Assembly (NCBI GenBank): GCA_963814585.1
Contig: CAWFDF010000008.1
Coordinates: forward strand, 224,001 to 288,000
Direction of reading: 5' to 3'
Length of the DNA stretch: 64,000 nt
Source: an uncultured delta proteobacterium
GTDB lineage: Bacteria > Myxococcota > Myxococcia > Myxococcales > Anaeromyxobacteraceae
Shown here: piece by piece, positions 2,024 through 28,058 of the stretch
How positions within the stretch are numbered: position 1 is the stretch's first letter
Layout of the letters: every line of letters starts with the position of its first letter
Program-made: the position numbers and the translations under genes
The notes under the pieces: model-generated
What the model was told of the DNA's origin: nothing
Databases searched by the model: none
What the model saw: only the letters and a program-made list of their open reading frames with translations

Positions 2024-3370
2024 TCAGCCCGGCAGGGCGCGCCGGACCGTGCCGTCGACCGCGGTGTCGACCAGCGGGCCGGTCGCCAGGCGCGTGGCCG
2101 GGTCGAGGCGCCTCACCAGCGGCTTGTCCCAGCGCGCCCGGTCACGCGCCGGCACCGCCACCCGCCCCAGGCCTCCGTCGGCCAGCTCCACCAGCGTGCC
2201 GGGTGGATGGAGTCCCAGGGCGTTGACCAGCGCCTGCGCCAGCGCGGCGTGGTAGAGCCTCCCGCCGGCCTTGAGCATCGCCCCGAGGGCGTCGGCGCGG
2301 GTGACCTTGGCCCCGTAGAGCCGGATGACGTTGGCGTAGTCCTCCGCGAGTCGCAGCGCCGCTCCGCCGCCCGACGGGGGCCCCTGCGGATCGGCCAGGT
2401 CGCGGTGGTGCTCCAGCACCCCGCGCAGCCTGCGAAGCTTGGCCTCCGAGAAGCCGCGCTGGCGCAGCAGGAGCCGCGCCCCCTCGAGGGGATGGCGCGC
2501 CAGGGCCGCCGTCCCCTCCCCGACCGACGGCACCAGGTACCCGACGTCGTGGACCAGGCCGGCGATGCCGACGTCCTGGAGCAGCCCGGCGGGGAACCCG
2601 GCCGCCTTGCCGGCCAGCAGGGCCACCATGGCCACCTCGACGGCGTGGGCCGCGTGCGGCGGGCAGTCGGGGAAGCCGAGCCAGAAGGCGGGCGCCTCGA
2701 GGCCCGCGGCGAGCGCCTCGGCCACGGCTCGCCGGATGGGCAACGGGTTGAGCACCCGGCCGGCGGCGAGGTGATCCCAGCCGTCGCAGGTCAGGTCGAG
2801 CAGCAGCCGGAGGACCTGCTCCGGCGTCCGCGGCGGCGGCGCTTGCTCCGACCGGGCGGCCTGGAACCGGTAGATGCCCAGCAGCTCCACCGCGTCGAGC
2901 CCCTGGTCCAGCAGCCACTGGCCGAGCGTGCCACGCGGCCACTCCTGGGCGGGCGGGCTGGCCAGCCCCTTCACCAGGGTCCGGATCTGCGGCCCGGTGA
3001 GCGGCGAGTGGAACAGGAGCCCGCCGGTGTTGTGGCGCTTCAGCTCGGCCCCCAGGCCGGCCGCGCCCGGCCGGTCGTCGGTGCGGACGCGGATGTCGTT
3101 GAGGTAGACCTGGTCCTCGACCGTCACCAGGGTGACCGGCCCGAGCGCCTCCCCCAGCGCCGCCAGCACCCGCGCCAGCTCGGCCACCGGCGCGTCGAAG
3201 GCTTGGTTGTCCGGGCTGTGGATCCGGGTCAGCTTGAGGAGGCCGGCCACCAGCTGCACCAGGCTCTCGCCCCCCTCGCGGACCCTCTGCGCCAGCTCCC
3301 GGTCCTCTCCGGCGCGGGCGCGGCCGAGGGCACGGCCGAGGCTGGCCTGGGCCCGGGCGAGCTCATCCAT
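2024..3370 (-). CDS. HD-GYP-like domain protein (degenerate) with uncharacterised N-terminal domain
   Basis: Start MDELARAQ overlaps upstream stop; HAVEVA, GLVHDVGY, HPLEG, EHH and LHPPGTLV motifs; canonical GYP absent. Confidence 0.75.
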   Translation of the reverse strand: MDELARAQASLGRALGRARAGEDRELAQRVREGGESLVQLVAGLLKLTRIHSPDNQAFDAPVAELARVLAALGEALGPVTLVTVEDQVYLNDIRVRTDDRPGAAGLGAELKRHNTGGLLFHSPLTGPQIRTLVKGLASPPAQEWPRGTLGQWLLDQGLDAVELLGIYRFQAARSEQAPPPRTPEQVLRLLLDLTCDGWDHLAAGRVLNPLPIRRAVAEALAAGLEAPAFWLGFPDCPPHAAHAVEVAMVALLAGKAAGFPAGLLQDVGIAGLVHDVGYLVPSVGEGTAALARHPLEGARLLLRQRGFSEAKLRRLRGVLEHHRDLADPQGPPSGGGAALRLAEDYANVIRLYGAKVTRADALGAMLKAGGRLYHAALAQALVNALGLHPPGTLVELADGGLGRVAVPARDRARWDKPLVRRLDPATRLATGPLVDTAVDGTVRRALPG

Positions 3371-5048
3371 GGCGGGCCCCCAGGTGGCGGCGGCGCGCCA
3401 GCATGGCGAGGCAGTGGCGCCGGAGGGCGTCGTCGTCGACCTCCTTGACCAGCGCCTCCAGCTGGGCCAGCGCCTCGGGCGCCGGGTGGGAGGCCAGCCC
3501 CGAGGCGCCGGCGGCGCGCAGGGCGTCGTCGTGCCCGGAGCCCGAGAACGCCTTGAGCAGGCCGCGGCGCGGCTTGAGCCACTCGGCGAAGACGGACGAG
3601 GCTCGCCCCGGATCGAGCCGGGCCATGGCCGAGCCGAAGGCATCGGCCTCGGCGAACGAGCACCCCTTGCGACCAGCCAGCGCGTCGTGGACGGACTGGA
3701 AGGCGGCGGCCTTGCCGCTGCGGGCCAGCGCGCGCGCCACGCCGATGCGGACCGGCTCCCGTGGCGACTGGAGGAGTCGCAGCAGCCGCTGCACCGGCAC
3801 CTCCCCCCCGGCCGCCTCGAGCGCCTGGAGCGCGGCCACCTGCAGGCCCTCGTCCGCGTGATCGAGCAGCGCCAGCGCCGCCGGCGTCGCGAAGGCGGGG
3901 GCCCGGGCGCCGATGGCGGTGACCAGCGCGCGCGCCACCCTGGCGTCGAGCGTGGCGAGCCGCTCGACGATGGCGCCGGCGTCGGCGGGAAGCCGGGCCT
4001 CGGCGACGAGGGCGAGGACGTGACGGCGCCCCGGGTCGACCTCGGTGGCCAGCAGATCGAGGGCGGCCTGCGCGGTGACCAGCGGCACCAGGCGCTGCGC
4101 CTCGGGAGGGAGCCTGGCGCTGCCGGCCGGCACCGCCGCCAGCACCGCGTCGAGCAGCCGGGGATCGCCCAGGGTCCGGAGCAGCTCGTCGCGCAGCGGA
4201 CCGGGAGGCATCCGCGCGGCCAGCTCCGCCAGCTCCGCCAGCGGCGCCAGCGCCGCGTCGGCGATGAAGGCGTCGCGCAGCTCGACCAGGAAGAGCTGCG
4301 CCTCCCGCACCGGGACCACGCCGCGCGCGGCCTCGGCGAGCAGGAGCCCGGCCAGGCGGAGGGCGCCGGCCCCCAGCGCCTCGGCCGCCTCGCCGGCGTG
4401 GAGCGAGGCCAGGGCCTCCGCCGGCACGTCGCGCCAGGCGATGGGACCGGGAGGCGGGAGGAGCGGGAACGGCGCGTCGAAGCCGGCCGGCGCGCGGCTC
4501 CCCGCCCCCCGGGACCGGCGGGTCCGCTCGGGCTCCGGGTTGTCCTCCTCCGGCGTGAACCCCTCGACGGCCTCGAAGCCGATCCGCTGGAACTCACCCT
4601 TGCGGAGCAGCGTGATGACGTCCTCCTCCTGCTGCCGGATGCCCACGTAGCGGACGGCGAGGATCTCGAGGAAGGCCAGCAGCTCCTCCCAGGGCACGCC
4701 GGATCGGAAGGTGATGCGGCGAACGCCATCCCGGAAGAGCCGGAAGGCCAGGGACCGCTCCCGGTCCTCCTCGCGATAGACGGCCTCTCCGTCGCGCAGC
4801 AGCTCGAACGGAAGGACCTCGAGCGTCAGGTCGGCGGCGGCCGTGGCCGCCTCGGCGCGGGCCTGGTAGTCGGAGAGGAACTGCCGGACCACGGCGTTGC
4901 CGGGCGCGTAGAGCGTGAAGGAGCGCGCGGCCTTGGAGAGCGCGGAGACGAACTGCGCCGCCACCGCGCCCGGACCGCTGGTGGCCAGCGGCGCGGCGGG
5001 CCCGGCCTCCCTCGGTGAGCCACCTCTCGGCGGCATGGGCAGCGCCAT
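3363..5048 (-). CDS. HEAT-repeat protein
   Basis: C-terminal LLDHADEGLQVAALQAL / LLQSPREPVRIGVARAL helical repeats; overlaps the HD-domain gene. Confidence 0.72.
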   Translation of the reverse strand: MALPMPPRGGSPREAGPAAPLATSGPGAVAAQFVSALSKAARSFTLYAPGNAVVRQFLSDYQARAEAATAAADLTLEVLPFELLRDGEAVYREEDRERSLAFRLFRDGVRRITFRSGVPWEELLAFLEILAVRYVGIRQQEEDVITLLRKGEFQRIGFEAVEGFTPEEDNPEPERTRRSRGAGSRAPAGFDAPFPLLPPPGPIAWRDVPAEALASLHAGEAAEALGAGALRLAGLLLAEAARGVVPVREAQLFLVELRDAFIADAALAPLAELAELAARMPPGPLRDELLRTLGDPRLLDAVLAAVPAGSARLPPEAQRLVPLVTAQAALDLLATEVDPGRRHVLALVAEARLPADAGAIVERLATLDARVARALVTAIGARAPAFATPAALALLDHADEGLQVAALQALEAAGGEVPVQRLLRLLQSPREPVRIGVARALARSGKAAAFQSVHDALAGRKGCSFAEADAFGSAMARLDPGRASSVFAEWLKPRRGLLKAFSGSGHDDALRAAGASGLASHPAPEALAQLEALVKEVDDDALRRHCLAMLARRRHLGARHG

Positions 5049-5161: not shown

Positions 5162-5179
5162 GTGTGGAGAAATTGAACG
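5162..5179 (-). promoter_or_regulatory. Single putative binding site for the locus sigma-54 activator
   Basis: Minus strand CGTTCAATTTCTCCACAC matches 15/18 with enhancer unit CGTCGAAGTTCTCCACAC at 11605-11622. Confidence 0.4.
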
Positions 5180-5258: not shown

Positions 5259-6899
5259 ATGAAGTCCACCGAAACGCCTCCCGGCCCCTCGGCCGATCTC
5301 GGGTACGAGCTCCGCTGGCGCGATCGCCTCTCCTCCAAGCTCCTGCTCTTCACCACCATGGCCGGGCTGGTGATCGTGGCGGCGTTCTTCGTCGCCGAGC
5401 TCCGCTTCGAGCGGTTCGTGGTCCAGCAGGCTGCCGAGGAGTCGGACCTGGTGGCCCAGACCGCGGCCAGCGCCATCTACCGGGCCATGCTCCTCGACCG
5501 GCGCGAGGACGCCTACCGCATCCTCGAAGACATCGGGCGGCAGCCGGGCGTCGATCGGATCCGCCTCCTCGACCACGGCGGCCGCGTCGCCTTCTCGACC
5601 GACGCCACCGAGACCGGCCGGACGCTGGACCCTCGCGGCCCGCACTGCGTGGTCTGCCACGCCGCCGGGGCGGATCGGGCCCCGGGGCTCGAGGGGCGCC
5701 GGCGCGTCGAGGAGGTCGGGGGGCAGCGCGTGCTCCAGCTGGTCGCGCCCATGCCCAACCAGCCGGCCTGCGCCGCCGCCGGCTGCCACGTCCACCCCAC
5801 CGCGGCGAGGCTCCTCGGGCTGCTCGCCGTCGATCGCTCCCTGGCCGCGGCCGATGCCCGGCTGGCTGGCTTCCGCTGGAGCTCGCTGGTGGTCGCCGCC
5901 GTGGTCGCCGCCGCCCTGGGGCTGGCCTTCTGGTGGCTGACCCACCGCCGCCTGGTCCAGCCGGTGGCTGCCCTGGTGGCGGCCACCCGCCGCGTCGCCC
6001 ATCAGGACCTGGAGCAGCCTGCGGCGCCCGACTTCGGCGGGGAGCTCGGGCTGCTGGCGGCCTCCTTCGGCGAGATGGTCCGCTCCCTGCGGGCCACCCG
6101 CGCCGAGCTGGATGCGCTCAACCAGGACCTCGAGCGCCAGGTCGAGGACCGCACCCGGGCGCTGGTCGAGACCCGCGAGCAGCTGGCGCGGGGCGAGACG
6201 CTGGCCGCCCTGGGCCGGCTCTCCGCCGCCGTCGGACACCGGCTGGGCAGCCCGCTCTCCGGCATCCTCACCATCGCCCGGAACGGCGCCCGCTCGCTCG
6301 AGGCCGGCCCCCTTCCCGACCCCGAGCGCGCCCGGCTGGCCCACGATCTCCGGCTCGTCGAGCGGGAGGCCGATCGCGCCGGCGAGGTGGTGGTGCGGCT
6401 CCTCGACTTCTCGCGCGAGCGCCCCTTCTCGGCGCAGCTCCTCGGAGCCGACTCGGTGGTCGACGAGGCGCTGGAGCTGGCCACGTCCGAGGCGAGGCTG
6501 CAGGGCATCGCCGTCACCCGGCGCAGCACGCCGACCTCTCCGCTCCTGGCCGACCGCAGCCAGCTCCGGCAGGCCGTGCTCGACACGCTGCTCCGGGCCT
6601 TCGGCGCCATGCCGGACGGCGGGCAGCTCACCGTCGAGACCGGCCCGGCCGCGAGCGGCCGCGAGGTCGAGATCGCCGTCACCGACTCGGGCCCGATGCT
6701 CCCGGCCGGGGAGCTGGGCCGCGTCTTCGAGCCCGACTTCTCGGCCACGGCGGGCGCCGGCCTCGGGCTGGCGCAGGCCCACGCCATCGCCGTCCGCCAC
6801 GGCGGGCGGCTCGAGGTCACCAGCGAGCCGGGACGAGGCACCCGGATCGCCATCCGCCTGCCGGCACCACCTGCGGCCGACGAGGGCGCCGGGCGGTGA
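5259..6899 (+). CDS. Membrane sensor histidine kinase-like protein with periplasmic c-heme motifs; degenerate kinase core
   Basis: Two TM segments, CVVCH and CAAAGCH, HAMP, H-box GHRLGSPL, DSGPM, GAGLGL. Confidence 0.85.
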   Translation: MKSTETPPGPSADLGYELRWRDRLSSKLLLFTTMAGLVIVAAFFVAELRFERFVVQQAAEESDLVAQTAASAIYRAMLLDRREDAYRILEDIGRQPGVDRIRLLDHGGRVAFSTDATETGRTLDPRGPHCVVCHAAGADRAPGLEGRRRVEEVGGQRVLQLVAPMPNQPACAAAGCHVHPTAARLLGLLAVDRSLAAADARLAGFRWSSLVVAAVVAAALGLAFWWLTHRRLVQPVAALVAATRRVAHQDLEQPAAPDFGGELGLLAASFGEMVRSLRATRAELDALNQDLERQVEDRTRALVETREQLARGETLAALGRLSAAVGHRLGSPLSGILTIARNGARSLEAGPLPDPERARLAHDLRLVEREADRAGEVVVRLLDFSRERPFSAQLLGADSVVDEALELATSEARLQGIAVTRRSTPTSPLLADRSQLRQAVLDTLLRAFGAMPDGGQLTVETGPAASGREVEIAVTDSGPMLPAGELGRVFEPDFSATAGAGLGLAQAHAIAVRHGGRLEVTSEPGRGTRIAIRLPAPPAADEGAGR

Positions 6900-6906
6900 C
6901 TCCGCG

Positions 6907-7455
6907 ATGGACCCCATCTCCATCTGCTGGATCGGGGAGCACGAGGCGGTCCCGGCGGTGATCGAGCGCGTGCGCCACGAGCTGGAGCGCGCCTACGGCG
7001 TGCCGGCGGTCCTCTGGGACCCGGCCGACCGGCCGCGCGACACCCTCGACCCGAAGCGGCGCCAGCACGCCTCCGGCAAGCTGCTGGCCTGGCTGCTCCA
7101 GGCCGCTCCACCCGGCCGGAAGGTCCTGGGGCTCACCGACCAGGACCTGTTCATCCCCATCCTCACCTACGTGTTCGGCGAGGCCCAGCTCGGCGGCCGC
7201 GTGGCGGTGGCCTCCACCGCCCGGCTCTCCGAGGACCTCGACCGCCGGGGCGAGCGACGCTTCACCGAGCGGGTCGTCAAGGAGGCGGTCCACGAGGTGG
7301 GCCACGCCTACGGCCTGGTGCACTGCAACGTCCCTCGCTGCGTCATGAGCCGCGCCGCCGGCGTCCGCGACGTCGACGAGAAGTCCGTCGAGCTCTGTCC
7401 ACGCTGTCGCCGCCGGCTCTCCGAGCCGGGGAGGAGTCCTCATGGCCTCGAATGA
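6907..7455 (+). CDS. Archaemetzincin (peptidase M54) zinc metalloprotease
   Basis: HEVGHAYGLVH zinc motif followed by CX4CXM...CPRC; DLFIPILTYVFGEAQ; ATG at 6907. Confidence 0.9.
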   Translation: MDPISICWIGEHEAVPAVIERVRHELERAYGVPAVLWDPADRPRDTLDPKRRQHASGKLLAWLLQAAPPGRKVLGLTDQDLFIPILTYVFGEAQLGGRVAVASTARLSEDLDRRGERRFTERVVKEAVHEVGHAYGLVHCNVPRCVMSRAAGVRDVDEKSVELCPRCRRRLSEPGRSPHGLE

Positions 7456-8851
7456 GCGCGTCCGCATCCTGGTGGTCGACGACGAGGAGATCGTCCGGGA
7501 GTCGCTGGCCGGCTGGCTGGACAAGGACGGCTACGCGGTCGACCAGGCGGCCGACGGGCCCTCGGCGCTGGAGAAGCTGCGCGCCCGGCCCTACTCCATC
7601 CTCATCGCCGACCTGAAGATGCCGGGCATGGACGGCCTCACCGTCCAGGTCGAGGCCCGGAAGCTGCAGCCCGCCCTGGCGGTGGTGATCATGACCGCCT
7701 ACGCCACCGTCGACACCGCCGTGACGGCCATGAAGCAGGGCGCCTTCGACTACCTCGTGAAGCCGTTCGATCCCGAGGAGTTGACGATGATGATGCAGAA
7801 GATCGTCGCCCAGCAGGAGCTGCTGCGCGAGAACGCCGTGCTCCGCAAGGCGCTGAAGAAGGAGCACCGGCTCCACGATCTCGCCTCCAAGGCCCCGGCG
7901 ATGCAGGCGGTCTTCGACCTGGCCCGCAGCGCGGCCCGCTCCAGCTCCACCATCCTCGTCCTCGGCGAGTCCGGCTCGGGCAAGGAGGTCCTGGCCCGCG
8001 CCATCCATGCCGAGAGCCCGCGCGCCGAGGGCCCGTTCGTGGAGGTCTCGTGCGCCGCGCTCACCGAGACGCTGCTGGAGTCCGAGCTCTTCGGCCACGA
8101 GAAGGGGTCCTTCACCGGCGCCACCGCGCGACGCAAGGGCAAGTTCGAGGCCGCCCACAAGGGCACCCTCTTCCTCGACGAGGTCGGCGACATCGGCCCC
8201 AAGCTCCAGCTCGACCTGCTGCGGGTGCTGGAGGAGCGCCGCTTCCAGCGGATCGGCGGCAACGAGACGGTCGAGGTGGACGTCCGCATCGTCGCCGCGA
8301 CCAACAAGGACCTGCAGCGGGCCGTGGCGGCCGGGAGCTTCCGGGAGGACCTCTTCTACCGGCTCAACGTCATCCCCATCCGCCTGCCCCCGCTCCGGGA
8401 ACGGCGCGAGGACATCCCGCTGCTGGTCGACCACTTCATCGAGCGGCTCTCGGCCGAGCTGGGACGGCCCATCGAGGGGATCTCGGCCGAGGCCATGAAC
8501 GCGCTGATGATCCAGCCCTGGCCAGGGAACGTGCGCGAGCTGCGCAACGTCCTCGAACGGGGCGCGGTCGTTGCGCGCGGGCCGCTCATCGAGCTGGAGG
8601 ACCTCGGCCTCACCACTCGAGCGGGCCCCGCCCCGGCAGGGCCACCGCCCGCAGCCGTGACCTCGCCCGATGAGTCGCTCGACGAGGTGGAGCGGCGGCA
8701 CATCGCCAGCGTGCTGGCCCACACCGGGTTCAACGTCAGCCAGTCGGCCCGGGTCCTCGGCGTCGACCGGGTCACGCTCTACAACAAGATGCGAAAGTAT
8801 GGGCTGCGGCGGGAGGGCGAGGAGGAGCCTGGCCCGCCGAGCGCCCGTTGA
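7442..8851 (+). CDS. Sigma-54-dependent response regulator (NtrC/AtoC family)
   Basis: Receiver (VVDDE, DLKMPG), GESGSGKE, GSFTGA, FREDLFYRLNV, WPGNVRELRN, C-terminal HTH. Confidence 0.95.
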   Translation: MASNERVRILVVDDEEIVRESLAGWLDKDGYAVDQAADGPSALEKLRARPYSILIADLKMPGMDGLTVQVEARKLQPALAVVIMTAYATVDTAVTAMKQGAFDYLVKPFDPEELTMMMQKIVAQQELLRENAVLRKALKKEHRLHDLASKAPAMQAVFDLARSAARSSSTILVLGESGSGKEVLARAIHAESPRAEGPFVEVSCAALTETLLESELFGHEKGSFTGATARRKGKFEAAHKGTLFLDEVGDIGPKLQLDLLRVLEERRFQRIGGNETVEVDVRIVAATNKDLQRAVAAGSFREDLFYRLNVIPIRLPPLRERREDIPLLVDHFIERLSAELGRPIEGISAEAMNALMIQPWPGNVRELRNVLERGAVVARGPLIELEDLGLTTRAGPAPAGPPPAAVTSPDESLDEVERRHIASVLAHTGFNVSQSARVLGVDRVTLYNKMRKYGLRREGEEEPGPPSAR

Positions 8852-8915
8852 GCACCGACGAAGTTCTCCACACCTTCCCCATCCGACTGTAGAGCGCCGT
8901 TGAGTTCTTCCACGC
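8843..8915 (+). promoter_or_regulatory. Upstream activator sequence, copy 1 (tandem GTAGAG-N-CTCCAC sites)
   Basis: 73-bp block repeated at 11592-11664; ends 94 bp before a -24/-12 box. Confidence 0.75.
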
Positions 8916-9008
8916 CCGCTGGCGCGCGGCGGGCGTGCGCCGGCGCGCGGCCAGCGACATCTCCCAGTGAATCCGGTCGATTCCGCGGCGGCGCCGCGCC
9001 GGGGCCGC

Positions 9009-9025
9009 TTGGCCCCATCCTTGCT
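9009..9025 (+). promoter_or_regulatory. Sigma-54 -24/-12 promoter
   Basis: TTGGCCCCATCCTTGCT (GG-N10-GC). Confidence 0.8.
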
Positions 9026-9048
9026 GAACGTCTCCCCCGGAGGCGCGA

Positions 9049-9258
9049 ATGACTTGCCCGTATCGGAAAGAGGTCTCGATGGTCTTCTGCCGGGCCTACC
9101 CGGTGAAGAAGCTGGTCCCGATCGATCGAGTCACCACCGCGAGCACCTGCGAAGGCGAGGGCTTCCGGACCTGCGCGGCCTACGCCGAGGCGGCGGGACG
9201 CAGCTGGCGAGGGAACGTGGACGAAGACGACACCCTGGAGGGGGCGGGCCATTCCTGA
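9049..9258 (+). CDS. Small 4-Cys protein (CX10CX19CX7C), putative metal/FeS-binding
   Basis: GGAGG at 9039-9043; first ORF after the sigma-54 box; MTCPYRKEVSMVFC...TCEGEGFRTC. Confidence 0.65.
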   Translation: MTCPYRKEVSMVFCRAYPVKKLVPIDRVTTASTCEGEGFRTCAAYAEAAGRSWRGNVDEDDTLEGAGHS

Positions 9259-9279
9259 ATGGACCCGAGGGAGACAGCC

Positions 9280-10158
9280 ATGAGGATGACGAGGCGAGCG
9301 TTCTTCAAGGTGGCGGGCGTCACGGCCGGCACCGGTCTTGCCGTGGCGGCCACGGCGCGGGCGGCGGACCCGGCCCCGGCCGACGAGTCGCTCCCCGGCG
9401 TGCTGGTCGACACCACCCGCTGCGCCGGCTGCCGGGCCTGCGAGGCGGCCTGCGCCGAGACCAACAAGAACCCGGCCCCCGCCGAGAGCGCCGACATGTC
9501 GGTGCGCCGCGACACCAGCCAGCACGTCTTCACGGTGATCAACCGGGCCGAGGGCCCGGGTGGCGTGGAGCGCTTCGCGAAGAAGCAGTGCATGCACTGC
9601 CTCGCCCCGGCCTGCGCCTCGGCCTGCCCGGTCCGGGCCATGGACAAGCTCCCCACCGGCCCGGTGGTCTACGACGCGTCCAAGTGCATGGGCTGCCGCT
9701 ACTGCATGGTGGCCTGCGCCTTCGACATCCCCAAGTACGAGTACGAGCGGGCCGCGCCGCGCGTGCGCAAGTGCACCTTCTGCGCCGAGCGCCAGGCCGA
9801 GGGCCTCGAGCCGGCCTGCACCTCGGTCTGCCCCACCGGCGCGCTCACCTTCGGCAAGCGGGCCGCGCTGCTCGAGGAGGCCAAGCGGCGCATCTACGCC
9901 GAGGGCTCCAGGTACGTGCGCCGCGTCTACGGCGAGCGCGAGGCCGGCGGCACCAGCTGGCTCTACATCTCGGACATCCCCTTCGAGCAGCTGGCGCTCA
10001 ACACCGGGATGCCGGAGCGCCCGTACACCGAGCTGGTGGCCGGCGCGCTGGGCGCTCCCCCCTTCGTCATGACGCTCTGGCCGCCGCTGCTGATGGGGCT
10101 CTACACGTTCTCGAAGCGCCGTGAAGAGGTCGAGGAGAAGGAGGAGCACCATGGCTAA
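9280..10158 (+). CDS. Tat-exported 4x[4Fe-4S] ferredoxin subunit (HybA/HmcB-like) with C-terminal anchor
   Basis: TRRAFFK Tat motif; CAGCRACEAAC, CMHCLAPACASACP, CMGCRYCMVAC, KCTFC..PACTSVCP; YGEREAGGTSWLY. Confidence 0.9.
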   Translation: MRMTRRAFFKVAGVTAGTGLAVAATARAADPAPADESLPGVLVDTTRCAGCRACEAACAETNKNPAPAESADMSVRRDTSQHVFTVINRAEGPGGVERFAKKQCMHCLAPACASACPVRAMDKLPTGPVVYDASKCMGCRYCMVACAFDIPKYEYERAAPRVRKCTFCAERQAEGLEPACTSVCPTGALTFGKRAALLEEAKRRIYAEGSRYVRRVYGEREAGGTSWLYISDIPFEQLALNTGMPERPYTELVAGALGAPPFVMTLWPPLLMGLYTFSKRREEVEEKEEHHG

Positions 10159-11374
10159 CGCCACCGCCGCTTCGCTGGCCGGCAGCTCGTCGTTCTTCCG
10201 CGAGAAGATCTTGCTGGGCATGGGCTGGGGCGAGTACCTCCGCTCCCTGCTCACTCCGGGCAACGCCGTGGCCGCCGTCATCCTGGTGGTCGGCCTCCCG
10301 CTGCTCGCCTACCGGTTCGCGGCCGGCCTGGGCGCCACCACGGCCCTGTCCCAGGCCTACCCCTGGGGCCTCTGGATCGGCTTCGACATGATGACCGGCA
10401 TCGTCCTCGCCGCCGGGGGCTTCACCGTCGGGGCCACGGTCCAGCTGCTCGGCCTGAAGGACTACCACGCCATCGAGCGGTCGGCGATCCTCACCGCCTT
10501 CCTCGGCTACCTGATGGCGATCTTCGGCCTGCTGGCCGACCTGGGCCGGCCCTGGAACATCGTCCAGGCCATCTTCAACTACGGCACCGCCTCGGCCCTC
10601 TTCGAGGTCGCCTGGTGCGTGATGTGCTACTCGACCGTCCTCTTCCTGGAGTTCACCCTGCCCTTCTTCGAGTGGCTCGGCTGGCGGCGCATCCACGCCG
10701 TCCTCAAGAAGGCGCTCATCGCCCTCACCGTGATGTCGGTGGTCTTCTCCACCATGCACCAGTCGGCGCTCGGGTCGCTCTTCCTGCTGGCGCCCACCAA
10801 GCTCCACCCGCTCTGGTACTCGCCCTTCATCTTCATCTTCTTCTTCATCTCGGCGATCCTGGCCGGGATCGCCATGGCCATCATCGAGAGCTCCATCTCG
10901 CACCGGGTCTTCGCCCGCCAGCTGGGTGGGCAGCACGTCGACGTGGACAAGCTGGTGGTCGGCCTCGGCAAGGCCGGCGCGGTGGTGTCCTTCGCCTACT
11001 TCTTCATCAAGCTGCAGGGCGTCATCGACGGACACGCCTGGGGTCACCTGGCCACCGGGTGGGGCGCGCTCTTCCTCGTCGAGACCGTCGGCCTGGTGCT
11101 GGTCCCCTCCTTCCTCTTCGCCTACGGTGCCCGCAACGGCCAGGCCGGGCCCGTCAAGCTGGCGGCGGTGCTGACGGTGTGCGGCATCATCCTCAACCGG
11201 CTCAACGTCGCGGTCATCGCCTTCAACTGGACCAACCCCGTCCGGTACGCGCCGAGCTGGATGGAGGTCTGGGTCTCGATCACGCTGGTCACGCTCGGCG
11301 TCGTCGCCTTCCGGTGGATCGTCAACCGCATGCCGATCCTCCGTGAGGACCCGGCCTTCCCGCAGGAACACTGA
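10151..11374 (+). CDS. NrfD/PsrC-family membrane quinol-interacting subunit (HybB/HmcC-like)
   Basis: YPWGLWIGFD, DLGRPW, SALFEVAWC, STMHQSALGSLF, KLHPLWYS; about 10 TM helices. Confidence 0.9.
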   Translation: MANATAASLAGSSSFFREKILLGMGWGEYLRSLLTPGNAVAAVILVVGLPLLAYRFAAGLGATTALSQAYPWGLWIGFDMMTGIVLAAGGFTVGATVQLLGLKDYHAIERSAILTAFLGYLMAIFGLLADLGRPWNIVQAIFNYGTASALFEVAWCVMCYSTVLFLEFTLPFFEWLGWRRIHAVLKKALIALTVMSVVFSTMHQSALGSLFLLAPTKLHPLWYSPFIFIFFFISAILAGIAMAIIESSISHRVFARQLGGQHVDVDKLVVGLGKAGAVVSFAYFFIKLQGVIDGHAWGHLATGWGALFLVETVGLVLVPSFLFAYGARNGQAGPVKLAAVLTVCGIILNRLNVAVIAFNWTNPVRYAPSWMEVWVSITLVTLGVVAFRWIVNRMPILREDPAFPQEH

Positions 11375-11394
11375 GCGGGCCATCCAGGGGGGCT

Positions 11395-11422
11395 GCGGCG
11401 CCGCGCTCATGCGCGGCGCCGC
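11395..11422 (+). terminator. Hairpin after NrfD-like gene (putative terminator)
   Basis: Perfect 12-bp stem GCGGCGCCGCGC-TCAT-GCGCGGCGCCGC followed by only a short T run. Confidence 0.45.
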
Positions 11423-11591
11423 GTCATTTCCGGGCCGCCCGGGACCCTTCCGCCTCCTCACCCCCTCGGACCAGGCCCGGGACCGGCCCGCACCGGACTC
11501 GACGCCAGCCAGGCGGCGCGCGCCCCCGCGGCCGGCCGGGTCCAGCCCGGCGAGGAGCTGCCTGGGCGCCGTGCGCCACCGTGGACCTGGT

Positions 11592-11664
11592 GCCCGTAGA
11601 GCGCCGTCGAAGTTCTCCACACATCCCCTCCACGACTGTAGAGCGCCGTTGAGTTCCTCCACGC
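11592..11664 (+). promoter_or_regulatory. Upstream activator sequence, copy 2
   Basis: GTAGAGCGCCGTCGAAGTTCTCCACA...TGTAGAGCGCCGTTGAGTTCCTCCACG; repeat of 8843-8915. Confidence 0.75.
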
Positions 11665-11757
11665 TTCCCTGCGGGAGCCCGTCCCCACCGGACGCGGTGG
11701 CACCTTCACCTACCTGGAAGTACGGGCCATTTGGCGTCGCCGCCGGGCCGAGCCGAC

Positions 11758-11774
11758 TTGGCCGCATCCTTGCT
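11758..11774 (+). promoter_or_regulatory. Sigma-54 -24/-12 promoter
   Basis: TTGGCCGCATCCTTGCT, 16/17 identical to 9009-9025. Confidence 0.8.
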
Positions 11775-11822
11775 ACTGCTCTCCATGGAGTCGCGAAGTA
11801 CCCGCCCGCAACGGAGACGGCA

Positions 11823-12563
11823 ATGACCCACGAATTCCTCAGCATCTACCCGGCCAAGCTCATGGAGTACGGCCTGGCGATCACCTACCTGCTGCTCTTC
11901 ATCCCCATGTGGCGCTACGTGCAGGGTGGCCGCCGCCAGGCCGCGGAGGCCGTGGTGCGCGGGCGCCGCGACGCCGAGCGCTGGCCTGCCGTCGCGGTGG
12001 CGGCCCCGTGGCCGAGCCTCGGCTGGTTCCAGGTCCCGGCAGGCGTGGCCCTCCACCCGGGTCACACCTGGGCCCGGCTCGACGCCGACGGCACCGTGGC
12101 GGTGGGCGTGGATGACTTCGCCCAGCGGCTGGTGGCGCCGACCCGCATCGAGCTGCCGCGCGCCGGCGCCGTGGTGGCGCAGGGTGAGTCGGCCGTGGCG
12201 CTGGGCGACGGCCACCGCACCGTGCCGCTGGTCTCCCCGGTCAACGGGACGGTGGTGGCGGTGAACCGCGCCGTGGCCGAGACCCCGGACCTGCTCCAGG
12301 ACCCCTACGGCGCCGGCTGGCTCTTCAAGGTGAAGGCCCCGCGGCTCGAGGCCGACCAGCGGCAGCTGCTCCACGCCCAGTCGGCGCGCCACTTCCTGGA
12401 TGGCGAGGCGGAGGCCCTGGCGATGCGGGCCAGCCCGGAGGTCGGACAGGTGCTGCAGGACGGCGGCGTGCCGGTCCACGGGCTGGCCCGGGCGCTGGCC
12501 GGGGACGCCGGCTGGGACGCGCTGGCCCGCGAGTTCTTCCACACCGAGAAGGGGACGCCATGA
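11823..12563 (+). CDS. Membrane-anchored glycine cleavage H (GcvH)-fold protein lacking the lipoyl-Lys
   Basis: N-terminal TM helix; HPGHTWA, VGVDDFA, SPVNGTVVAVN, DPYGAGWL; GGAG RBS. Confidence 0.82.
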   Translation: MTHEFLSIYPAKLMEYGLAITYLLLFIPMWRYVQGGRRQAAEAVVRGRRDAERWPAVAVAAPWPSLGWFQVPAGVALHPGHTWARLDADGTVAVGVDDFAQRLVAPTRIELPRAGAVVAQGESAVALGDGHRTVPLVSPVNGTVVAVNRAVAETPDLLQDPYGAGWLFKVKAPRLEADQRQLLHAQSARHFLDGEAEALAMRASPEVGQVLQDGGVPVHGLARALAGDAGWDALAREFFHTEKGTP

Positions 12564-12907
12564 CCACCACGCTCCGTCGGGCCCTGCGGATGACCAGCGC
12601 CGTCGTGCTGCTGGGCGCCGGCCTGGCCCTGGCCTACGAGCTGCCCCGCCTTCCCGGGCCCGTCGCCCTGAAGCGAGGCGCCGACAGCCCCGGCCTGGTG
12701 ACCTTCCGGCACGAGAGCCACGTCGACTCGGCCAAGCCCACCTGCCTGGCCTGCCACCCGGAGCGGTTCAGCCTGCTCGGCCGCACCGCCACCGAGAAGC
12801 GGCCGGACATCACCCACGATCGCATGACCGGGGGGCGCGACTGCGGCGCCTGCCACGGGAAGGAGGCCTTCGGCCTGGACGACTGCACCAACTGTCACGC
12901 GGAGTGA
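12560..12907 (+). CDS. Periplasmic triheme cytochrome c (c7-like)
   Basis: Signal peptide; VTFRHESH, CLACH, ITHDRM, CGACHGKEAF, CTNCH. Confidence 0.9.
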   Translation: MTTTLRRALRMTSAVVLLGAGLALAYELPRLPGPVALKRGADSPGLVTFRHESHVDSAKPTCLACHPERFSLLGRTATEKRPDITHDRMTGGRDCGACHGKEAFGLDDCTNCHAE

Positions 12908-12958
12908 GCGTAGCGTCACGGATGACCGCATCATGCTGAAAGGAAGAAGGAGACTGTC

Positions 12959-13660
12959 ATGACCACCATCTACGGAGCCATCGAACTGGTTGCGGTGTTC
13001 CTCGTCGGGCTGGCCGCGCGCGCCGGCATCGTCCTCGCCCTCGTCGTCTTGCTGGCCATCCCGGTCCTGCTCATCGCCGCCATGATGCGCGGCGCCGGCG
13101 AGCTGAAGAAGAGGTCGCTCGGCCTCCGCGAGGTGGCTGGGCTCATCTTCCGGCCCGACGCCTGGTACAGCGCCGGCCACACCTGGATGACCCGGCTCGC
13201 CGGTGGCTCGCTCCGCATCGGCCTCGATGCCCTCGCCCTCCGGCTCATGCCCACCGTCAACGGCGTCGAGCTGAAGCCGGCCGGGACCCGCGTCACCAGG
13301 GGCGCGACCATCGCCACCATCCACGCCGGCGCCCGCTCGCTGGCGATCCGCTCCCCGGTCGACGGCGTGGTGGTGGCCGCCAACGCCGCCGCGCTCCGCG
13401 ACCCGTCACTGGTCAAGAGCGACGGCTATGGCCGCGGCTGGCTGGTCACCGTGGCTCCCGCCAACATGGCCTTCGCCGACCTGCCCAGCGGCCGCTCCGC
13501 CGAGAAGTTCCTCCGCGAGGAGGCGGCGCGCTGGAACCACTTCGTCGAGGGTCGGCTCGGCTACGCGGCCGCCGACGGCGGCGAGCTGACGGCGCCGGCG
13601 CCCTGGCTGCTCGGCGACGAGGGCTGGCGCGAGCTGGCCGACGCCTTCGTCGACCGCTGA
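12959..13660 (+). CDS. Second membrane-anchored GcvH-fold protein lacking the lipoyl-Lys
   Basis: Hydrophobic N-terminus; GHTWM, RIGLD, SPVDGVVVAAN, DGYGRGWL, AADGG. Confidence 0.82.
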   Translation: MTTIYGAIELVAVFLVGLAARAGIVLALVVLLAIPVLLIAAMMRGAGELKKRSLGLREVAGLIFRPDAWYSAGHTWMTRLAGGSLRIGLDALALRLMPTVNGVELKPAGTRVTRGATIATIHAGARSLAIRSPVDGVVVAANAAALRDPSLVKSDGYGRGWLVTVAPANMAFADLPSGRSAEKFLREEAARWNHFVEGRLGYAAADGGELTAPAPWLLGDEGWRELADAFVDR

Positions 13661-13787
13661 GCTCAGCGGCCGGGTCCCGCCTCGCGGCGGTCCAGGCGCG
13701 GCTCCCGGCGGCCCGGTCCAGGGTCGCCGGCGGGCCGCGCCGGCGTTTCCGGGTGCCGGCGGGCCAGCCCCCAAGCCGATGGTGACC

Positions 13788-13966
13788 CGTGCCGCGCCCC
13801 AGGCAAGATGACGTGACGAGAGAGCCGAGACCGAAGCGAGGCTGGCGCCCGAGGAGGGAGCAGCGGAAGCGTAGCAGCGCTACGCTGAGCAGCGGACCGA
13901 CGAGGCCGCCTGCCGCAGCGAGAGGATCGGCTCTCGCAGTAGGCATCTTGCCTGGGGCGCGGCACG
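13788..13966. mobile_element. MITE/REPIN-like non-autonomous element, copy 1
   Basis: 23-bp perfect terminal inverted repeat CGTGCCGCGCCCCAGGCAAGATG; 159-bp core differs by 1 nt from the inverted copy at 24686-24844. Confidence 0.8.
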
Positions 13967-14102
13967 AGCCCCGGGAGCGGCAGCGCCGCCACGAAGAGGA
14001 GGCCGAGCACCGGCGCGGCGACGAGGAGCAGCGGCGTCGGGACGAGGCGCCGGGGCCGCCGGGGTGGCGAGGCCGGCCGGGCGGCTCCTCGAGGGCCCGG
14101 CC

Positions 14103-15755
14103 TCACTCGGCGACCAGCTCGCCACCACCCGTCCCCGGCTCGACGGCCGGGAGCCGGATGACGAAGCGCGCCCCGTGGCCCGGTGCGCGCTCCACGTCGA
14201 TGCGCCCACCGTGCCGTGTCACGATGCCGTAGACCACGGAGAGGCCGAGGCCGGTGCCCTTCTCCTTGGTGGTGAAGAACGGGTCGAAGATCTTGCGGAG
14301 GTTCTCGGGTGAGATGCCCGGCCCGGTGTCCTCGACGGCGATCTCGACGGTCCGGCCCCCGTCGGCGACCCGGGTCTCCAGCAGCAGCGTGCCGCCCTCC
14401 CCCATGGCCTCCATGGCGTTGAGGGCGAGGTTGACCACGGCCTGCCGCAGCTCGCCGAAGTCGGCCAGGACCGGCGGAAGCGGCTGGAGCCTGCGGTCGA
14501 GCCGGAGGCCGGCGATGCTGAGCTTGTGGCCGACGAGCTGGATCGACTCCTCGATGGCGGCGTTGGCGTCGACCGGCTCGAGCTTGAGCGGCCGCTCGCG
14601 GGCGAAGTCGAGCAGGTTGCGGACGATGGCCGAGCAGCGCCCGGCCTCCCGCTCCACCAGCGACAGGTTCCGGGTGAGCGTGGCGCGGCTGGCCGGGTCG
14701 GGGACGGCGGTCTCGAGCTGGCGCGTGACCAGCTTGGCGAAGGTGAGGATGCCGGCCAGGGGGTTGTTGATCTCGTGGGCGATCGACGCCGAGAGCTGGC
14801 CGAGCGAGGAGAGCTTCTCGGTCTGGACCAGCGCCGCCTGGGCCCTGCGCAGGTCGGCGGTCCGATCCTCGACCTTCTGCTCCAGCTCGACGTTGAGCGA
14901 CCTCAGGTCACCCTCGACGCGGCGCAGCGAATGGGTCATCTCGTTGAACGACCTGGCCAGGACCCCCAGCTCGCCGCGGTCGTCGACCTGGATCTCCTGG
15001 TCGAGCTGATCACGGGCGATCCGGCGGGTGCCCTCGAGGATGGCGGAGACCGGCTGGACCACCCTGCGGCGCGCGAAGGTGACCAGGGTCCCGCCGAGCA
15101 GCGTCACGCCGAGCACGGCCGCGGCCAGCCCGAACACCCGGGCCATGGACTGCCGGCGATCGGCCTCCTCGAGCGAGACCAGCACCTCCTGGATGCCCAG
15201 CACCTGGTCGCCGCGCGCATGGTGGTGGCAGGTCGAGGAGGAGCAGCGGGCCTCGTTGTGGATGGGGGTGATGACGTGGAGGGCGCGGTGCCCTTCCATC
15301 TCCACGACCCGGCTGGCCCGGTCGACGCTGAGCCGGGCGAGCGGCTGGGGGCCCTGGTGGCAGGGGCGGCACGACTCCTCGGTGCGATCGAGGATCAGCC
15401 CCTCCTCGCCGGAGACCGTGGAGAAGGTGATGGTGCCGTCCTTGTTGAAGACGCGGACCAGGTCGATGCCGGGCTGGCGCCCGATGGCCCGCATGATCTC
15501 GTAGGCGTCGGACCGGCGGTCCTCCAGCATGGCCCGCCGCGTGGCGCTGGAGATGGTCTCGCCGAAGAGGACCGCCCCGGAGAGGGCCTGCTCCATGAGC
15601 GCCTGGCGCATGGTCCGCTCGAAGGCGCCGTAGGCGATGAGCGAGCCGACGAAGAGGATGGCGGTCAGCGAGAGGAGCTGCGTGGAGAGCCGGTGGCGCC
15701 ACGGGATCCTCGCCGTGGGGTCCTGCTGCGGACCGGAGGTGGGTCCCCGCCTCAT
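14103..15755 (-). CDS. Sensor histidine kinase with periplasmic c-heme motifs (intact catalytic core)
   Basis: CRPCH, CSSSTCH, HAMP, AHEINNPL, NLALNAMEAM, DTGPGI, FDPFFTTKEKGTGLGL; start uncertain. Confidence 0.92.
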   Translation of the reverse strand: MRRGPTSGPQQDPTARIPWRHRLSTQLLSLTAILFVGSLIAYGAFERTMRQALMEQALSGAVLFGETISSATRRAMLEDRRSDAYEIMRAIGRQPGIDLVRVFNKDGTITFSTVSGEEGLILDRTEESCRPCHQGPQPLARLSVDRASRVVEMEGHRALHVITPIHNEARCSSSTCHHHARGDQVLGIQEVLVSLEEADRRQSMARVFGLAAAVLGVTLLGGTLVTFARRRVVQPVSAILEGTRRIARDQLDQEIQVDDRGELGVLARSFNEMTHSLRRVEGDLRSLNVELEQKVEDRTADLRRAQAALVQTEKLSSLGQLSASIAHEINNPLAGILTFAKLVTRQLETAVPDPASRATLTRNLSLVEREAGRCSAIVRNLLDFARERPLKLEPVDANAAIEESIQLVGHKLSIAGLRLDRRLQPLPPVLADFGELRQAVVNLALNAMEAMGEGGTLLLETRVADGGRTVEIAVEDTGPGISPENLRKIFDPFFTTKEKGTGLGLSVVYGIVTRHGGRIDVERAPGHGARFVIRLPAVEPGTGGGELVAE

Positions 15756-15829: not shown

Positions 15830-15909
15830 GTGCCCAGACCCCGGCAAGGTGCCTGCAGCGAGAGGATCGGCCCTCTCGTCGCGTCATCCTGCCTGGGTCA
15901 CGGCACTAG
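15830..15909. repeat. Internally deleted, degenerate copy of the MITE-like element
   Basis: GTGCCCAGACCCCGGCAAGGTGCCT...GCAGCGAGAGGATCGGC...CTCTCGTCGCGTCATCCTGCCTGGGTCACGGCACTAG keeps both arms and the terminal CTAG. Confidence 0.7.
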
Positions 15910-28050: not shown

Positions 28051-28058
28051 GGCGGCTC

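Follow-up and report, generated by a model that had tools for sequence, protein, structure and literature searches.

Closest described systems

Among the systems that most resemble the locus analyzed here, Cbc4 (CbcSTU) is probably a trio of an FeS protein, an NrfD protein and a cytochrome, and GSU0599 probably the kinase of the activator BccR; for the archaemetzincin family, we know of no physiological substrate. At low potential, the Geobacter receiver/sigma-54 activator BccR (GSU0598) is described as inducing a quinone:cytochrome pathway (10.1101/2021.04.15.440034); GSU0599 belongs, according to PMC8396549 and PMC3831638, to the two-component proteins and carries two haem motifs. Nhc is presented as a simplified Hmc without HmcE/F (PMC4215793). 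Two-motif sensors of Anaeromyxobacter, Adeh_2011 and Adeh_3383, are noted in the available part of PMC3831638 without a tie to the operon discussed below.

The window, a 64,000-nucleotide stretch from an uncultured member of the Anaeromyxobacteraceae whose genome is 91.7% complete, contains ten genes named in the initial annotation, all of which are intact and lie where they had been placed. We found no published description of the whole gene set in the literature, and the block is widespread among bacteria and apparently unstudied. It is best explained as two layers, an Nhc/Hmc-type core and a control layer. We hold with moderate confidence a model that combines a quinone:cytochrome output, control by haem sensors and sigma-54, and adaptors of the H-fold/DGG type. 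The originally proposed quinone:cytochrome conduit under haem-sensor/sigma-54 control stands as the best reading because the block is co-conserved, no hydrogenase or molybdoenzyme in the genome carries its promoter signature, and the quinone and proton residues of NrfD are kept.

The Nhc/Hmc-type core

The FeS subunit (9280..10158, + strand) is an HmcB/NhcB-like protein, predicted to be Tat-exported, with 4x[4Fe-4S] and a C-terminal anchor; the NrfD subunit (10151..11374, +) is HmcC/NhcC-like and has 10 TMs. The pair was initially labelled HybAB-like; the homology holds, but both proteins score higher with the Hmc models (FeS subunit, 324 bits with HmcB vs 229 with HybA; NrfD, 442 bits with HmcC vs 254 with HybB), all four scores being below the respective cut-offs (420 and 550 bits for the HmcB and HmcC NCBIfam models, 263 and 450 bits for HybA and HybB). 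In a quick tree, NrfD clusters with HmcC sequences, away from HybB of the same genome; in an unfinished tree, the NrfDs linked to H-folds do not form a single clade. The four cluster motifs are kept in 70/70 FeS proteins tested. NrfD matches 16 of the 18 NhcC residues listed in the available part of PMC8076601 (D130, S148, R350 and 13 more), as judged by position offset from the published list; the quinone-site Asp/Ser, the gate Arg and the proton-path residues appear to be kept.

No HybO or HybC is encoded at the locus. The complex is not the orphan HybAB first described but of a known, Nhc/Hmc(ABCD)-like type, with HmcD concealed in the N-terminus of GcvH-like 1 (11823..12563, +). This protein consists of an HmcD-type membrane helix, a Lys-less H-fold and a C-terminal DGG extension. 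Its residues 3–33 show a 48% match to an HmcD, and an HMM built from such helices finds small genes of true 16-haem Hmc operons. The HmcD model NF045712 is passed by 5 of the 7 peptides scanned; the window's own helix, taken alone, does not match it.

The remaining component is a periplasmic triheme cytochrome c7 (12560..12907, +; TIGR04257, 59.1 bits, cut-off 40), with three CXXCH motifs and a signal peptide recognized by eye. The c7 is restricted to this family, most relatives having no cytochrome at the locus, and a multihaem cytochrome is encoded nearby in only 7 of the 29 fully bracketed cross-phylum loci. Fused cytochrome-HmcD-H-fold proteins occur naturally (P0173, P0240). The loci L192 and L193 consist of FeS-NrfD-HmcD-c7 only, without kinase or H-fold. 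By sequence, the core is homologous to Nhc/Hmc. The FeS protein, NrfD, HmcD helix and c7 would form a quinone:cytochrome c oxidoreductase of the Nhc/Hmc(ABCD) type that would require no catalytic subunit of its own, link the menaquinone pool to the cytochrome pool of the periplasm by electron exchange, and perhaps move protons; both the oxidoreductase activity and the direction of electron flow are putative.

Sensor kinases and sigma-54 control

The c-haem sensor kinases reported at both ends of the block, HK1 (5259..6899, +) and HK2 (14103..15755, -), are present, but each contains both a CXXCH and a CX4CH haem motif. HK1 combines a probable dihaem Cache (sCache_heme-like) sensor with HAMP and kinase domains (Pfam HAMP/HisKA/HATPase) and is a predicted pseudokinase: the acidic residue after the H-box His and the N-box Asn are missing, and the haem motifs are kept. 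HK2, also a probable dihaem Cache sensor kinase, has intact catalytic motifs. The kinase/pseudokinase pair is thus real in this genome but not general, HK1-type degeneration being found in 6 of the 9 genus members examined. Both haem motifs are present in 66/67 kinases and Met76 in 67/67. The sensor profile matches GSU0935/3b42 (E 1.9e-5), and PF21563 is detected in 42 of 56 sensor sequences, the one from the window being under the cut-off; CX4CH occupies the usual haem-motif site of the family, and CXXCH lies at a second place. Haem attachment and ligand binding are predicted for these kinases. Via its two c-haems, HK2 would sense redox conditions in the periplasm or else a ligand of the haems, for instance NO, and phosphorylate NtrC, and HK1 would be a dead partner tuning the response.

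The NtrC-type protein (7442..8851, +; Pfam), whose reading frame overlaps that of the protease gene by 14 nt, has the features of a sigma-54 activator, namely a receiver with the phospho-Asp, an AAA+ domain with a GAFTGA-type loop (GSFTGA in the translation) and a Fis HTH. Two -24/-12 promoters with upstream sites are found at the locus (9010, 11759). Promoter 1 (8856..9024, +) comprises enhancer palindromes at 8856-8872 and 8898-8914 and -24/-12 elements at 9010-9024; promoter 2 (11605..11773, +) comprises enhancers at 11605-11621 and 11647-11663 and -24/-12 elements at 11759-11773. The two represent one 183-nt duplication (72% identity), of which the genome holds no third copy, and promoter 2 is a recent duplicate of promoter 1. 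The palindromic enhancer is conserved across phyla. The two sigma-54 units with duplicated enhancers noted earlier are present but not general, and the second promoter is local to part of the genus (among 9 members, only here and in L024). In a genome-wide scan with a PWM whose training set included sister promoters of the window, the two promoters of the locus alone score clearly above all other sites (54.7 and 51.2; next 39.8; shuffles 35-44). A single enhancer-like palindrome 5' of HK1 (5163..5179, strand unassigned; PWM score 19.1), for which no accompanying sigma-54 site was found, possibly reflects autoregulation. The motif and its placement are clear; NtrC would bind the paired palindromes and drive sigma-54 transcription of the operon.

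H-fold proteins, the microprotein and the protease

GcvH-like 2 (12959..13660, +; Pfam) has a membrane anchor, a Lys-less H-fold and a DGG extension. The lipoyl Lys is indeed absent from both GcvH-like proteins, as first noticed, with His and Ala at that site; among 298 H-fold sequences, the lipoylation motif is found in none and Lys at the site in 19. All GcvH family models are under cut-off for both proteins. The H-fold of GcvH-like 2 is recognized by Pfam alone, and the structural model of GcvH-like 1 resembles H protein (Foldseek E 1.1e-12 to 3ab9; VIA Z 18.4, rmsd 1.7, 129 aligned, to 1dxm), the 45-residue DGG extension falling outside the match. A separate canonical gcv locus is located elsewhere on contig C8 (T and P recognized by eye). 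His78, His81, Asp97 and Asp213 are near-invariant and specific to the H-fold family, two of them differing from canonical GcvH. A total of 1,435 clusters (50% identity), including some canonical H proteins, reach E 1e-10 with GcvH-like 1.

The 4-Cys microprotein (9049..9258, +) aligns with Cys4 domains, and the four Cys are invariant in 39/39 aligned sequences; by this alignment, it is a free, split version of a domain, Cys4, with which soluble H-fold paralogues of other phyla begin. The archaemetzincin (M54; 6907..7455, +; NF033823, 159.5 bits, cut-off 145) has no signal peptide. Its zinc motif HExxHxxGxxH is intact and exact in 52/54 homologues. The protein is a predicted zinc protease.

A search of gene neighborhoods, suggested in the initial annotation, found the gene set co-conserved across several phyla; the query for the cross-phylum loci was an H-fold, and they include many close relatives. 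The 20 loci from Desulfobacterota contain Cys4-H-fold in 18, kinase in 15, sigma-54 ATPase in 13, M54 in 10 and NrfD in only 2 cases, and those scanned adjoin HdrA/L, MvhD, HdrB/C and MetFV genes. Receiver-H-fold fusions occur in loci of Bacteroidota, Ignavibacteria and Calditrichota; locus L042 has the order kinase-M54-NtrC-microprotein-H-fold without FeS/NrfD; and in Syntrophales the second H-fold gene is replaced by a helix and DGG motif alone. Within the family, M54 and full-length GcvH-like 1 are each present in 54 of 66 genomes, with identical per-genus tallies and four discordant, fragmented genomes; both are missing from 10, of which 6 (genus g9) retain the kinase. The co-loss represents two events, in g9 and in part of g6, where every regulator was lost. 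GcvH-like 1 and 2 relocate and duplicate as a pair.

The initial proposal had been "membrane subunits or adaptors". Adaptors are most likely: because of the receiver-domain fusions, the Hdr/MetFV company and the joint loss with the protease, the H-folds appear to be signalling adaptors rather than electron carriers, and the membrane-subunit alternative is weakened by cores that persist without H-fold (L192, L193). Together with the microprotein and the protease, the H-folds behave like a portable regulatory cassette and not like subunits on which electron flow depends. We infer the adaptor layer from fusions, co-movement and co-loss. The H-fold/DGG proteins would be cofactor-free cytoplasmic adaptors: GcvH-like 1 would give the membrane complex a cytoplasmic handle, pair with GcvH-like 2 and probably serve the archaemetzincin as partner or substrate. 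The Cys4 microprotein, probably a switch of the metal or redox kind, would together with the H-folds feed back on kinase and activator.

Alternative readings

A broader reading, which we put forward tentatively, is that Lys-less H-fold/DGG proteins, Cys4 and archaemetzincin together form a portable signalling device, so far undescribed, in anaerobic bacteria. H-folds on redox complexes (with HmcD, with MvhD, or free at Hdr/MetFV loci) would dock with one another via DGG and signal to the kinase/sigma-54 pair whether the complex is there or what its redox state is, and M54 cleavage would reset them. In the strongest form, if true, the dihaem kinase is wired into the FeS chain as well, and a respiratory complex monitors itself on either side of the membrane.

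It is doubtful that FeS/NrfD is a quinone-pool antenna feeding the dihaem domain of the kinase, a stand-in for the cytochrome subunit, the whole block being a sensor. This would fit the 22 of 29 bracketed loci that have no multihaem cytochrome and the 25 of the 29 that have the dihaem kinase; locus L165, where HmcD-FeS-NrfD precedes a kinase-less dihaem sensor; the loss of catalysis in HK1 with its haem motifs kept; and a regulon that comprises, in this genome, just the locus. However, L192 and L193 retain the intact core without a kinase, the proton-path residues of NrfD are conserved, the kinase occurs without FeS/NrfD in L042 and dihaem kinases without the electron-transfer module in L174-L176, and Cache_heme-HAMP receptors without output are described as known signalling partners (10.64898/2026.05.25.727664).

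Also unlikely is a transmembrane redox complex in which the H-folds are true cytoplasmic subunits replacing HmcE/HmcF, with the four conserved residues or Cys4 carrying electrons or a small ligand. Those His and Asp residues could form a metal or catalytic site, which would be superfluous in a pure adaptor, and H-folds are fused to HmcD, cytochromes and MvhD/Fer4 proteins (L134) and repeatedly adjoin Hdr-type enzymes. Against this, the core survives without H-fold at L192, L193 and L165, H-folds are fused to receiver domains and carry no cofactor motif, and in Syntrophales a helix with DGG stands in for the second gene.

Quite improbable is a response to NO or oxidant stress, in which NO is bound, or oxygen exposure detected, at the haems and the complex restores a low-potential niche by discharging or delivering electrons. 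NO binding is reported for sCache_heme domains fused to signalling modules (PMC12889525), NO and CO binding for GSU0582 and GSU0935 (PMC8396549), and, of the four scanned loci of genus g10 with a relocated GcvH pair, two have a rubrerythrin gene 3' of the pair. The latter, however, is a single orthologous arrangement, a pair of haems whose additional Met and His ligands are conserved is well suited to redox chemistry, and no NO reductase or hybrid-cluster gene was recognized among the annotated genes of the locus maps, where many flanking genes are unannotated. This reading alters the input only, not the architecture.

The weakest alternative, an ordinary split operon in which the FeS/NrfD pair works for a hydrogenase or molybdoenzyme from another part of the genome and the other genes are neighbors by chance, is largely refuted and highly improbable: no such enzyme with the promoter signature of the locus is found in the genome; the complete Hyd-2 operon on another contig owns HybA/HybB and has no enhancer; and the gene set is conserved across phyla. 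In its favor, the genome is only 91.7% complete, and an indirect hydrogenase link is expected, since Nhc is described as receiving electrons from periplasmic hydrogenases via a cytochrome (PMC8076601, PMC4215793).

Significance

The two-layer model provides a testable context for three orphan families, bacterial archaemetzincins, Lys-less "glycine cleavage H" proteins and dihaem Cache kinases, and suggests a way in which anaerobes bring electron flow through quinone- and Hdr-linked routes into line with the prevailing redox state. In metabolic reconstructions these genes are misleading, as they pass for gcvH and for hydrogenase subunits. The kinase is present in 61 of 66 Anaeromyxobacteraceae genomes; cultured strains of Anaeromyxobacter are among the 66, which makes knockouts and pull-downs feasible.

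Comparison with known systems

The block shares with the NhcABCD/HmcABCD core of Desulfovibrio and relatives, as described in the available part of PMC8076601, the 4x[4Fe-4S] subunit, the 10-TM NrfD, the small HmcD/NhcD helix and a multihaem cytochrome in place of a catalytic subunit. It differs in having a triheme c7 or no cytochrome where Nhc/Hmc have 9 or 16 haems, in the absence of HmcE/F from the locus, in the fusion of HmcD to an H-fold, and in its occurrence in non-sulfate-reducers with its own regulatory cassette. HybAB of hydrogenase-2 has homologous FeS and NrfD proteins, but the block scores lower with it than with HmcBC and lacks HybO/HybC.

The GSU0599/BccR/CbcBA system resembles the block in its receiver/sigma-54 activator, two-haem-motif protein and quinone:cytochrome output, but the Geobacter output is a b/c-type cytochrome pair, and the available parts of the reports mention no H-fold, Cys4 or M54. 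With the sCache_heme sensors (GSU0582, GSU0935; DUF3365/Tll0287), the block sensors probably share the TM-Cache-TM-HAMP layout; a haem motif lies at the same position, and their N-terminal helix Met aligns with the Met pair of 3b42. In contrast, they have CX4CH at that position, with another His after it, and a second motif, CXXCH.

Glycine cleavage H protein, GcvH-L and GcvH_rel_desulf have the fold in common with the H-folds of the block, which, however, lack the lipoyl Lys, have membrane anchors and the 45-residue DGG extension, and are not accompanied by gcvT/gcvP. Finally, the M54 protein shares the family model and the intact zinc motif with the archaemetzincins (AmzA), but unlike these is embedded in a signalling cassette together with a candidate partner.

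Gene content and promoters

The ten genes of the locus (in order, the kinase HK1, an M54 protease, NtrC, a 4-Cys microprotein, a Tat FeS protein, NrfD, GcvH1, the c7 cytochrome, GcvH2 and the kinase HK2) are all intact and lie where the initial annotation placed them. Both kinases show the HAMP/HisKA/HATPase architecture, the NtrC gene encodes a receiver-sigma54-HTH activator and the FeS gene a 4Fe-4S protein (Pfam, NCBIfam); the M54 protease passes the NF033823 cut-off (NCBIfam), and NrfD, the two GCV_H proteins and c7 are recognised by Pfam/NCBIfam. The microprotein belongs to no family in Pfam or NCBIfam. The two sigma-54 units with duplicated upstream DNA are likewise borne out: their elements, at 9010 and 11759, lie inside a 183-nt duplication (72% identical) of which the genome contains no third copy. 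Promoter 2 is seen only in the window and in locus L024 among the genus members examined; the gene caller used for the compared loci overlooked HK2 there and placed some starts wrongly. A scan for sigma-70 promoters and terminators yielded nothing useful. A sediment RNA library contains contigs from relatives that span the operon (share 0.08; similarity about 87-94% in the pieces listed); they are evidence of neither level, strand nor freedom from DNA.

Two further features were noted. A HEAT-repeat gene followed by an HD-domain gene (2027-4964, minus strand) is divergent from HK1 and keeps this position in close relatives. Next to HK2 lies a hairpin element of 177-179 nt (13788-13966), whose ends form a perfect inverted repeat of 23 nt, with a partial copy near 15831-15905; it has 38 blastn matches of at least 120 nt in the genome, several of them identical, resembles a MITE or REP-type repeat, and does not belong to the system.

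The likeliest model, to which we give slightly better than even chances, is that a kinase reads the periplasmic redox state and NtrC would switch on an Nhc-type quinone:cytochrome conduit, with H-fold adaptors, the Cys4 protein and the protease completing a feedback loop. The homologies, motifs, promoter signature and patterns of fusion and loss that enter this model are direct observations.

Conservation of the locus

The block is syntenic across the family Anaeromyxobacteraceae, to which named homologues assign the genome, and 61 of the 66 family genomes carry the kinase sensor. When one genome per species was searched by pattern, 301 places were confirmed, and the best 80 of them were analysed; the counts are not independent because the search used an H-fold query and the loci include close kin. 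According to the titles of these best 80 of 301, the neighborhood is co-conserved beyond Myxococcota: it occurs in Deferrimicrobia (MBNT15), Syntrophales and other Desulfobacterota, Bacteroidota, Ignavibacteria, Calditrichota, Nitrospinae and Myxococcota. FeS and NrfD are found together in 69/80 of these loci, the Cys4 domain (which matches the microprotein) in 58/80, the activator in 53/80, the haem sensor in 51/80, M54 in 44/80 and a nearby multihaem cytochrome in 15/80; for loci bracketed on both sides, the respective values are 26/29, 28/29, 25/29, 25/29, 21/29 and 7/29. The c7 gene is present in 12 of 100 loci, namely the Anaeromyxobacteraceae ones checked.

The Nhc/Hmc-like core

The FeS/NrfD pair had been described as HybAB-like. 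This identity is rejected. Both proteins obtain better scores with the HmcB/HmcC models than with those of HybA/HybB, staying below all four cut-offs, and NrfD stands apart from HybB in a quick tree; the genome also carries a complete Hyd-2 operon that includes a HybA/HybB pair. In that tree (52 rows), which is the only source of the grouping, the NrfD of the window falls in a 46-row group (SH-aLRT 99) with HmcC of 16-haem operons, the H-fold-linked rows do not form a single clade, and HybB is on a long branch. A PDB sequence search with NrfD found nothing. By offset, 16 of the 18 quinone-site and channel residues of NhcC, as listed in the available part of PMC8076601, are matched in this NrfD.

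An HMM of the N-terminal helices of GcvH1-type proteins matches genes of 38-55 residues beside HmcC; of seven scanned peptides, five pass the HmcD model and one is just short of it, and one HmcD aligns with GcvH1 residues 3-33 at 48%. Thus, GcvH1 combines HmcD with an H-fold. Neither the Anaeromyxobacter peptide of locus L041 nor the helix of GcvH1 itself matches HmcD in NCBIfam. Genus g9 retains the HmcD helix alone. Natural fusions (cytochrome-HmcD-H-fold and HmcD-H-fold-c7) place the cytochrome on the outer and the H-fold on the inner side of the membrane. Nhc is described as a cytochrome c3:quinone oxidoreductase and as a simplified Hmc (portions of PMC8076601 and PMC4215793), and, by sequence, the core is best classified as Nhc/Hmc-like, another representative of an already known type of complex.

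In a different reading, FeS/NrfD would be a quinone antenna feeding the kinase. Loci L192 and L193 consist of FeS-NrfD-HmcD-c7 only, with regulator and H-fold absent from the locus, and we consider the antenna rather unlikely.

Related gene sets were also noted. In locus L165 (5854-10580), a single run of genes encodes a receiver-only protein, HmcD, FeS, NrfD and a dihaem sensor lacking a kinase part (TM-Cache-TM-HAMP), and it faces the genes of a sigma-54 activator and a dihaem kinase; cytochrome, H-fold and M54 are absent from the locus. The window holds a second trio devoid of a catalytic subunit (25994-28505, minus strand), namely a tetrahaem cytochrome, a TtrB/NrfC/DsrO-like FeS protein and an NrfD of another clade, with no enhancer of the locus type. 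The genome of the window (G000) encodes 46 predicted proteins with at least three CXXCH motifs (maximum 58, in one protein of 3,078 residues), which offers c7 many possible downstream partners.

The H-fold proteins and their links to signalling

In the predicted structure of GcvH1 (pLDDT 86.9), residues 69-199 match H proteins. This match does not take in the C-terminal DGG extension, whose most conserved stretch is modelled with less confidence. An Atlas search with a GcvH1 homologue returned only GCV_H clusters. The proposal that these folds are non-lipoylated holds: the lipoylation motif is absent from all 298 family rows (some loci overlap), and lipoylation is rejected. Conserved across the rows are His78, His81, Asp97 and Asp213-Gly-Gly. 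The weak fold matches of GcvH1 include lipoyl domains in complex with pyruvate dehydrogenase kinase (Z 5.0), a resemblance that can be taken as analogy only. For the microprotein, an alignment is obtained with the Cys4 domain at the N-terminus of soluble H-fold paralogues, the four cysteines being invariant in 39 rows; its structure prediction is poor (pLDDT 63) and VIA gave no match at Z of at least 2. A profile comparison of Cys4 types A and B, with side B represented by one sequence, gave no similarity.

Several patterns tie the H-fold layer to signalling. Receiver-H-fold fusions exist, and locus L042 encodes the kinase, M54, NtrC, microprotein and H-fold, FeS/NrfD being absent. M54 and full-length GcvH1 are each present in 54/66 family genomes and both absent from 10/66, of which 6 retain the kinase; their presence is discordant in 4 fragmented genomes, and the co-absence represents two loss events at most. 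GcvH1 and GcvH2 move and duplicate as a pair; in Syntrophales, a helix with the DGG motif alone stands in for the second H-fold. Family-level H-fold matches occur in 69 of 201 sampled Desulfobacterota genomes. Twenty loci hand-picked from these genomes, mostly because they are not beside an HmcC-like match, contain Cys4-H-fold (18), kinase (15), sigma-54 ATPase (13), M54 (10) and NrfD (2), with a haem sensor in 0/20; the loci scanned have cytoplasmic PAS/GAF kinases and HdrA/L-, MvhD-, HdrB/C-, MetFV- and CODH/ACS-type neighbors. One true Hmc operon is flanked as well.

Two observations speak against a purely regulatory role: the H-fold occurs fused to HmcD, to cytochromes and to MvhD/Fer4 proteins, and there is a possible metal site. 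That the H-folds are redox subunits is unlikely in our view, and the signalling associations favor adaptors.

Further H-fold-related proteins include fusions to acetyl-CoA-synthetase-like (by eye) and MvhD/Fer4/molybdopterin-binding-domain proteins (L090:6819-9422, L116:11593-14055, L134:9607-12522) and P0194, in which three tandem H-folds are joined to an FAD-oxidase/Fer4/CCG protein (GlcD/GlcF-like). Cluster c6 (L071, L075, L077, L093, L097 and others) comprises membrane peptides of 70-105 residues ending in a GLTMADGG-type motif, which is that of the H-fold extension, yet they have no H-fold and no NCBIfam family. In genus g10 (L181, L182, L184, L186; two scanned), rubrerythrin directly follows a relocated GcvH1-GcvH2 pair.

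The dihaem kinases

CXXCH and CX4CH are both present in 66 of 67 kinases, and candidate axial ligands are a Met (67/67) and a further His (66/67). The sensor profile matches GSU0935 (3b42; E 1.9e-5). Sensors with two motifs are known from Anaeromyxobacter and Geobacter (PMC3831638, in part). The predicted kinase/pseudokinase pair is confirmed in part: among the 9 genus members examined, 6 have a degenerate HK1 that still bears its two haem motifs, and the other 3 have two intact kinases; most other genera have a single kinase in the locus.

The available text of PMC8396549 describes for GSU0935-type sensors both a redox-dependent switch of Met ligation and binding of NO and CO, and that of PMC12889525 describes signalling-type sCache_heme domains as NO sensors. 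We rate a response to NO or an oxidant as improbable.

The enhancer palindrome and the regulon

A palindrome with the consensus TGTTGA-N5-TCAACA is located mostly 110-180 bases upstream of the -24/-12 element (36 promoters, several lineages). In a genome scan the locus promoters top the list at 54.7 and 51.2, followed by 39.8 in AT-rich DNA (top scores in three shuffled-genome controls, 35-44); sister promoters of the locus were part of the training set. The signature occurs at 10 of 19 loci with dispersed H-fold genes, 4 of these 10 fetched after training, and none of L191-L197 has an enhancer/promoter above the threshold used.

A co-regulated hydrogenase, which would make the locus part of a split operon with its partner encoded elsewhere, is rejected: the Hyd-2 upstream region scores 2.1 for the enhancer, and only the two locus promoters exceed the shuffle range. 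No hydrogenase or molybdoenzyme was recognised inside a module in the locus maps, where many flanking genes carried no annotation; a split operon is very improbable.

Comparison with known systems

For the redox-sensing model, we infer the binding, cleavage and phosphotransfer steps, the signal and the direction of electrons. No description of the cassette was found in the literature searched, which took in few subscription papers, and no known counterpart of the adaptor/protease layer was found. An operon of a nine-haem cytochrome, FdnI-like cytochrome b, HtpX-like peptidase, one-haem Cache kinase and NarL-type regulator (G000:C14:187036-192190) is CbcBA-like; it adjoins the module in many Anaeromyxobacteraceae (L026, L029, L036, L041, L177, L180) and is on a separate contig in G000. 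Judging from the accessible portion of its description (10.1101/2021.04.15.440034), the Geobacter system BccR/CbcBA is, of those already worked out, the one most analogous to the switch.
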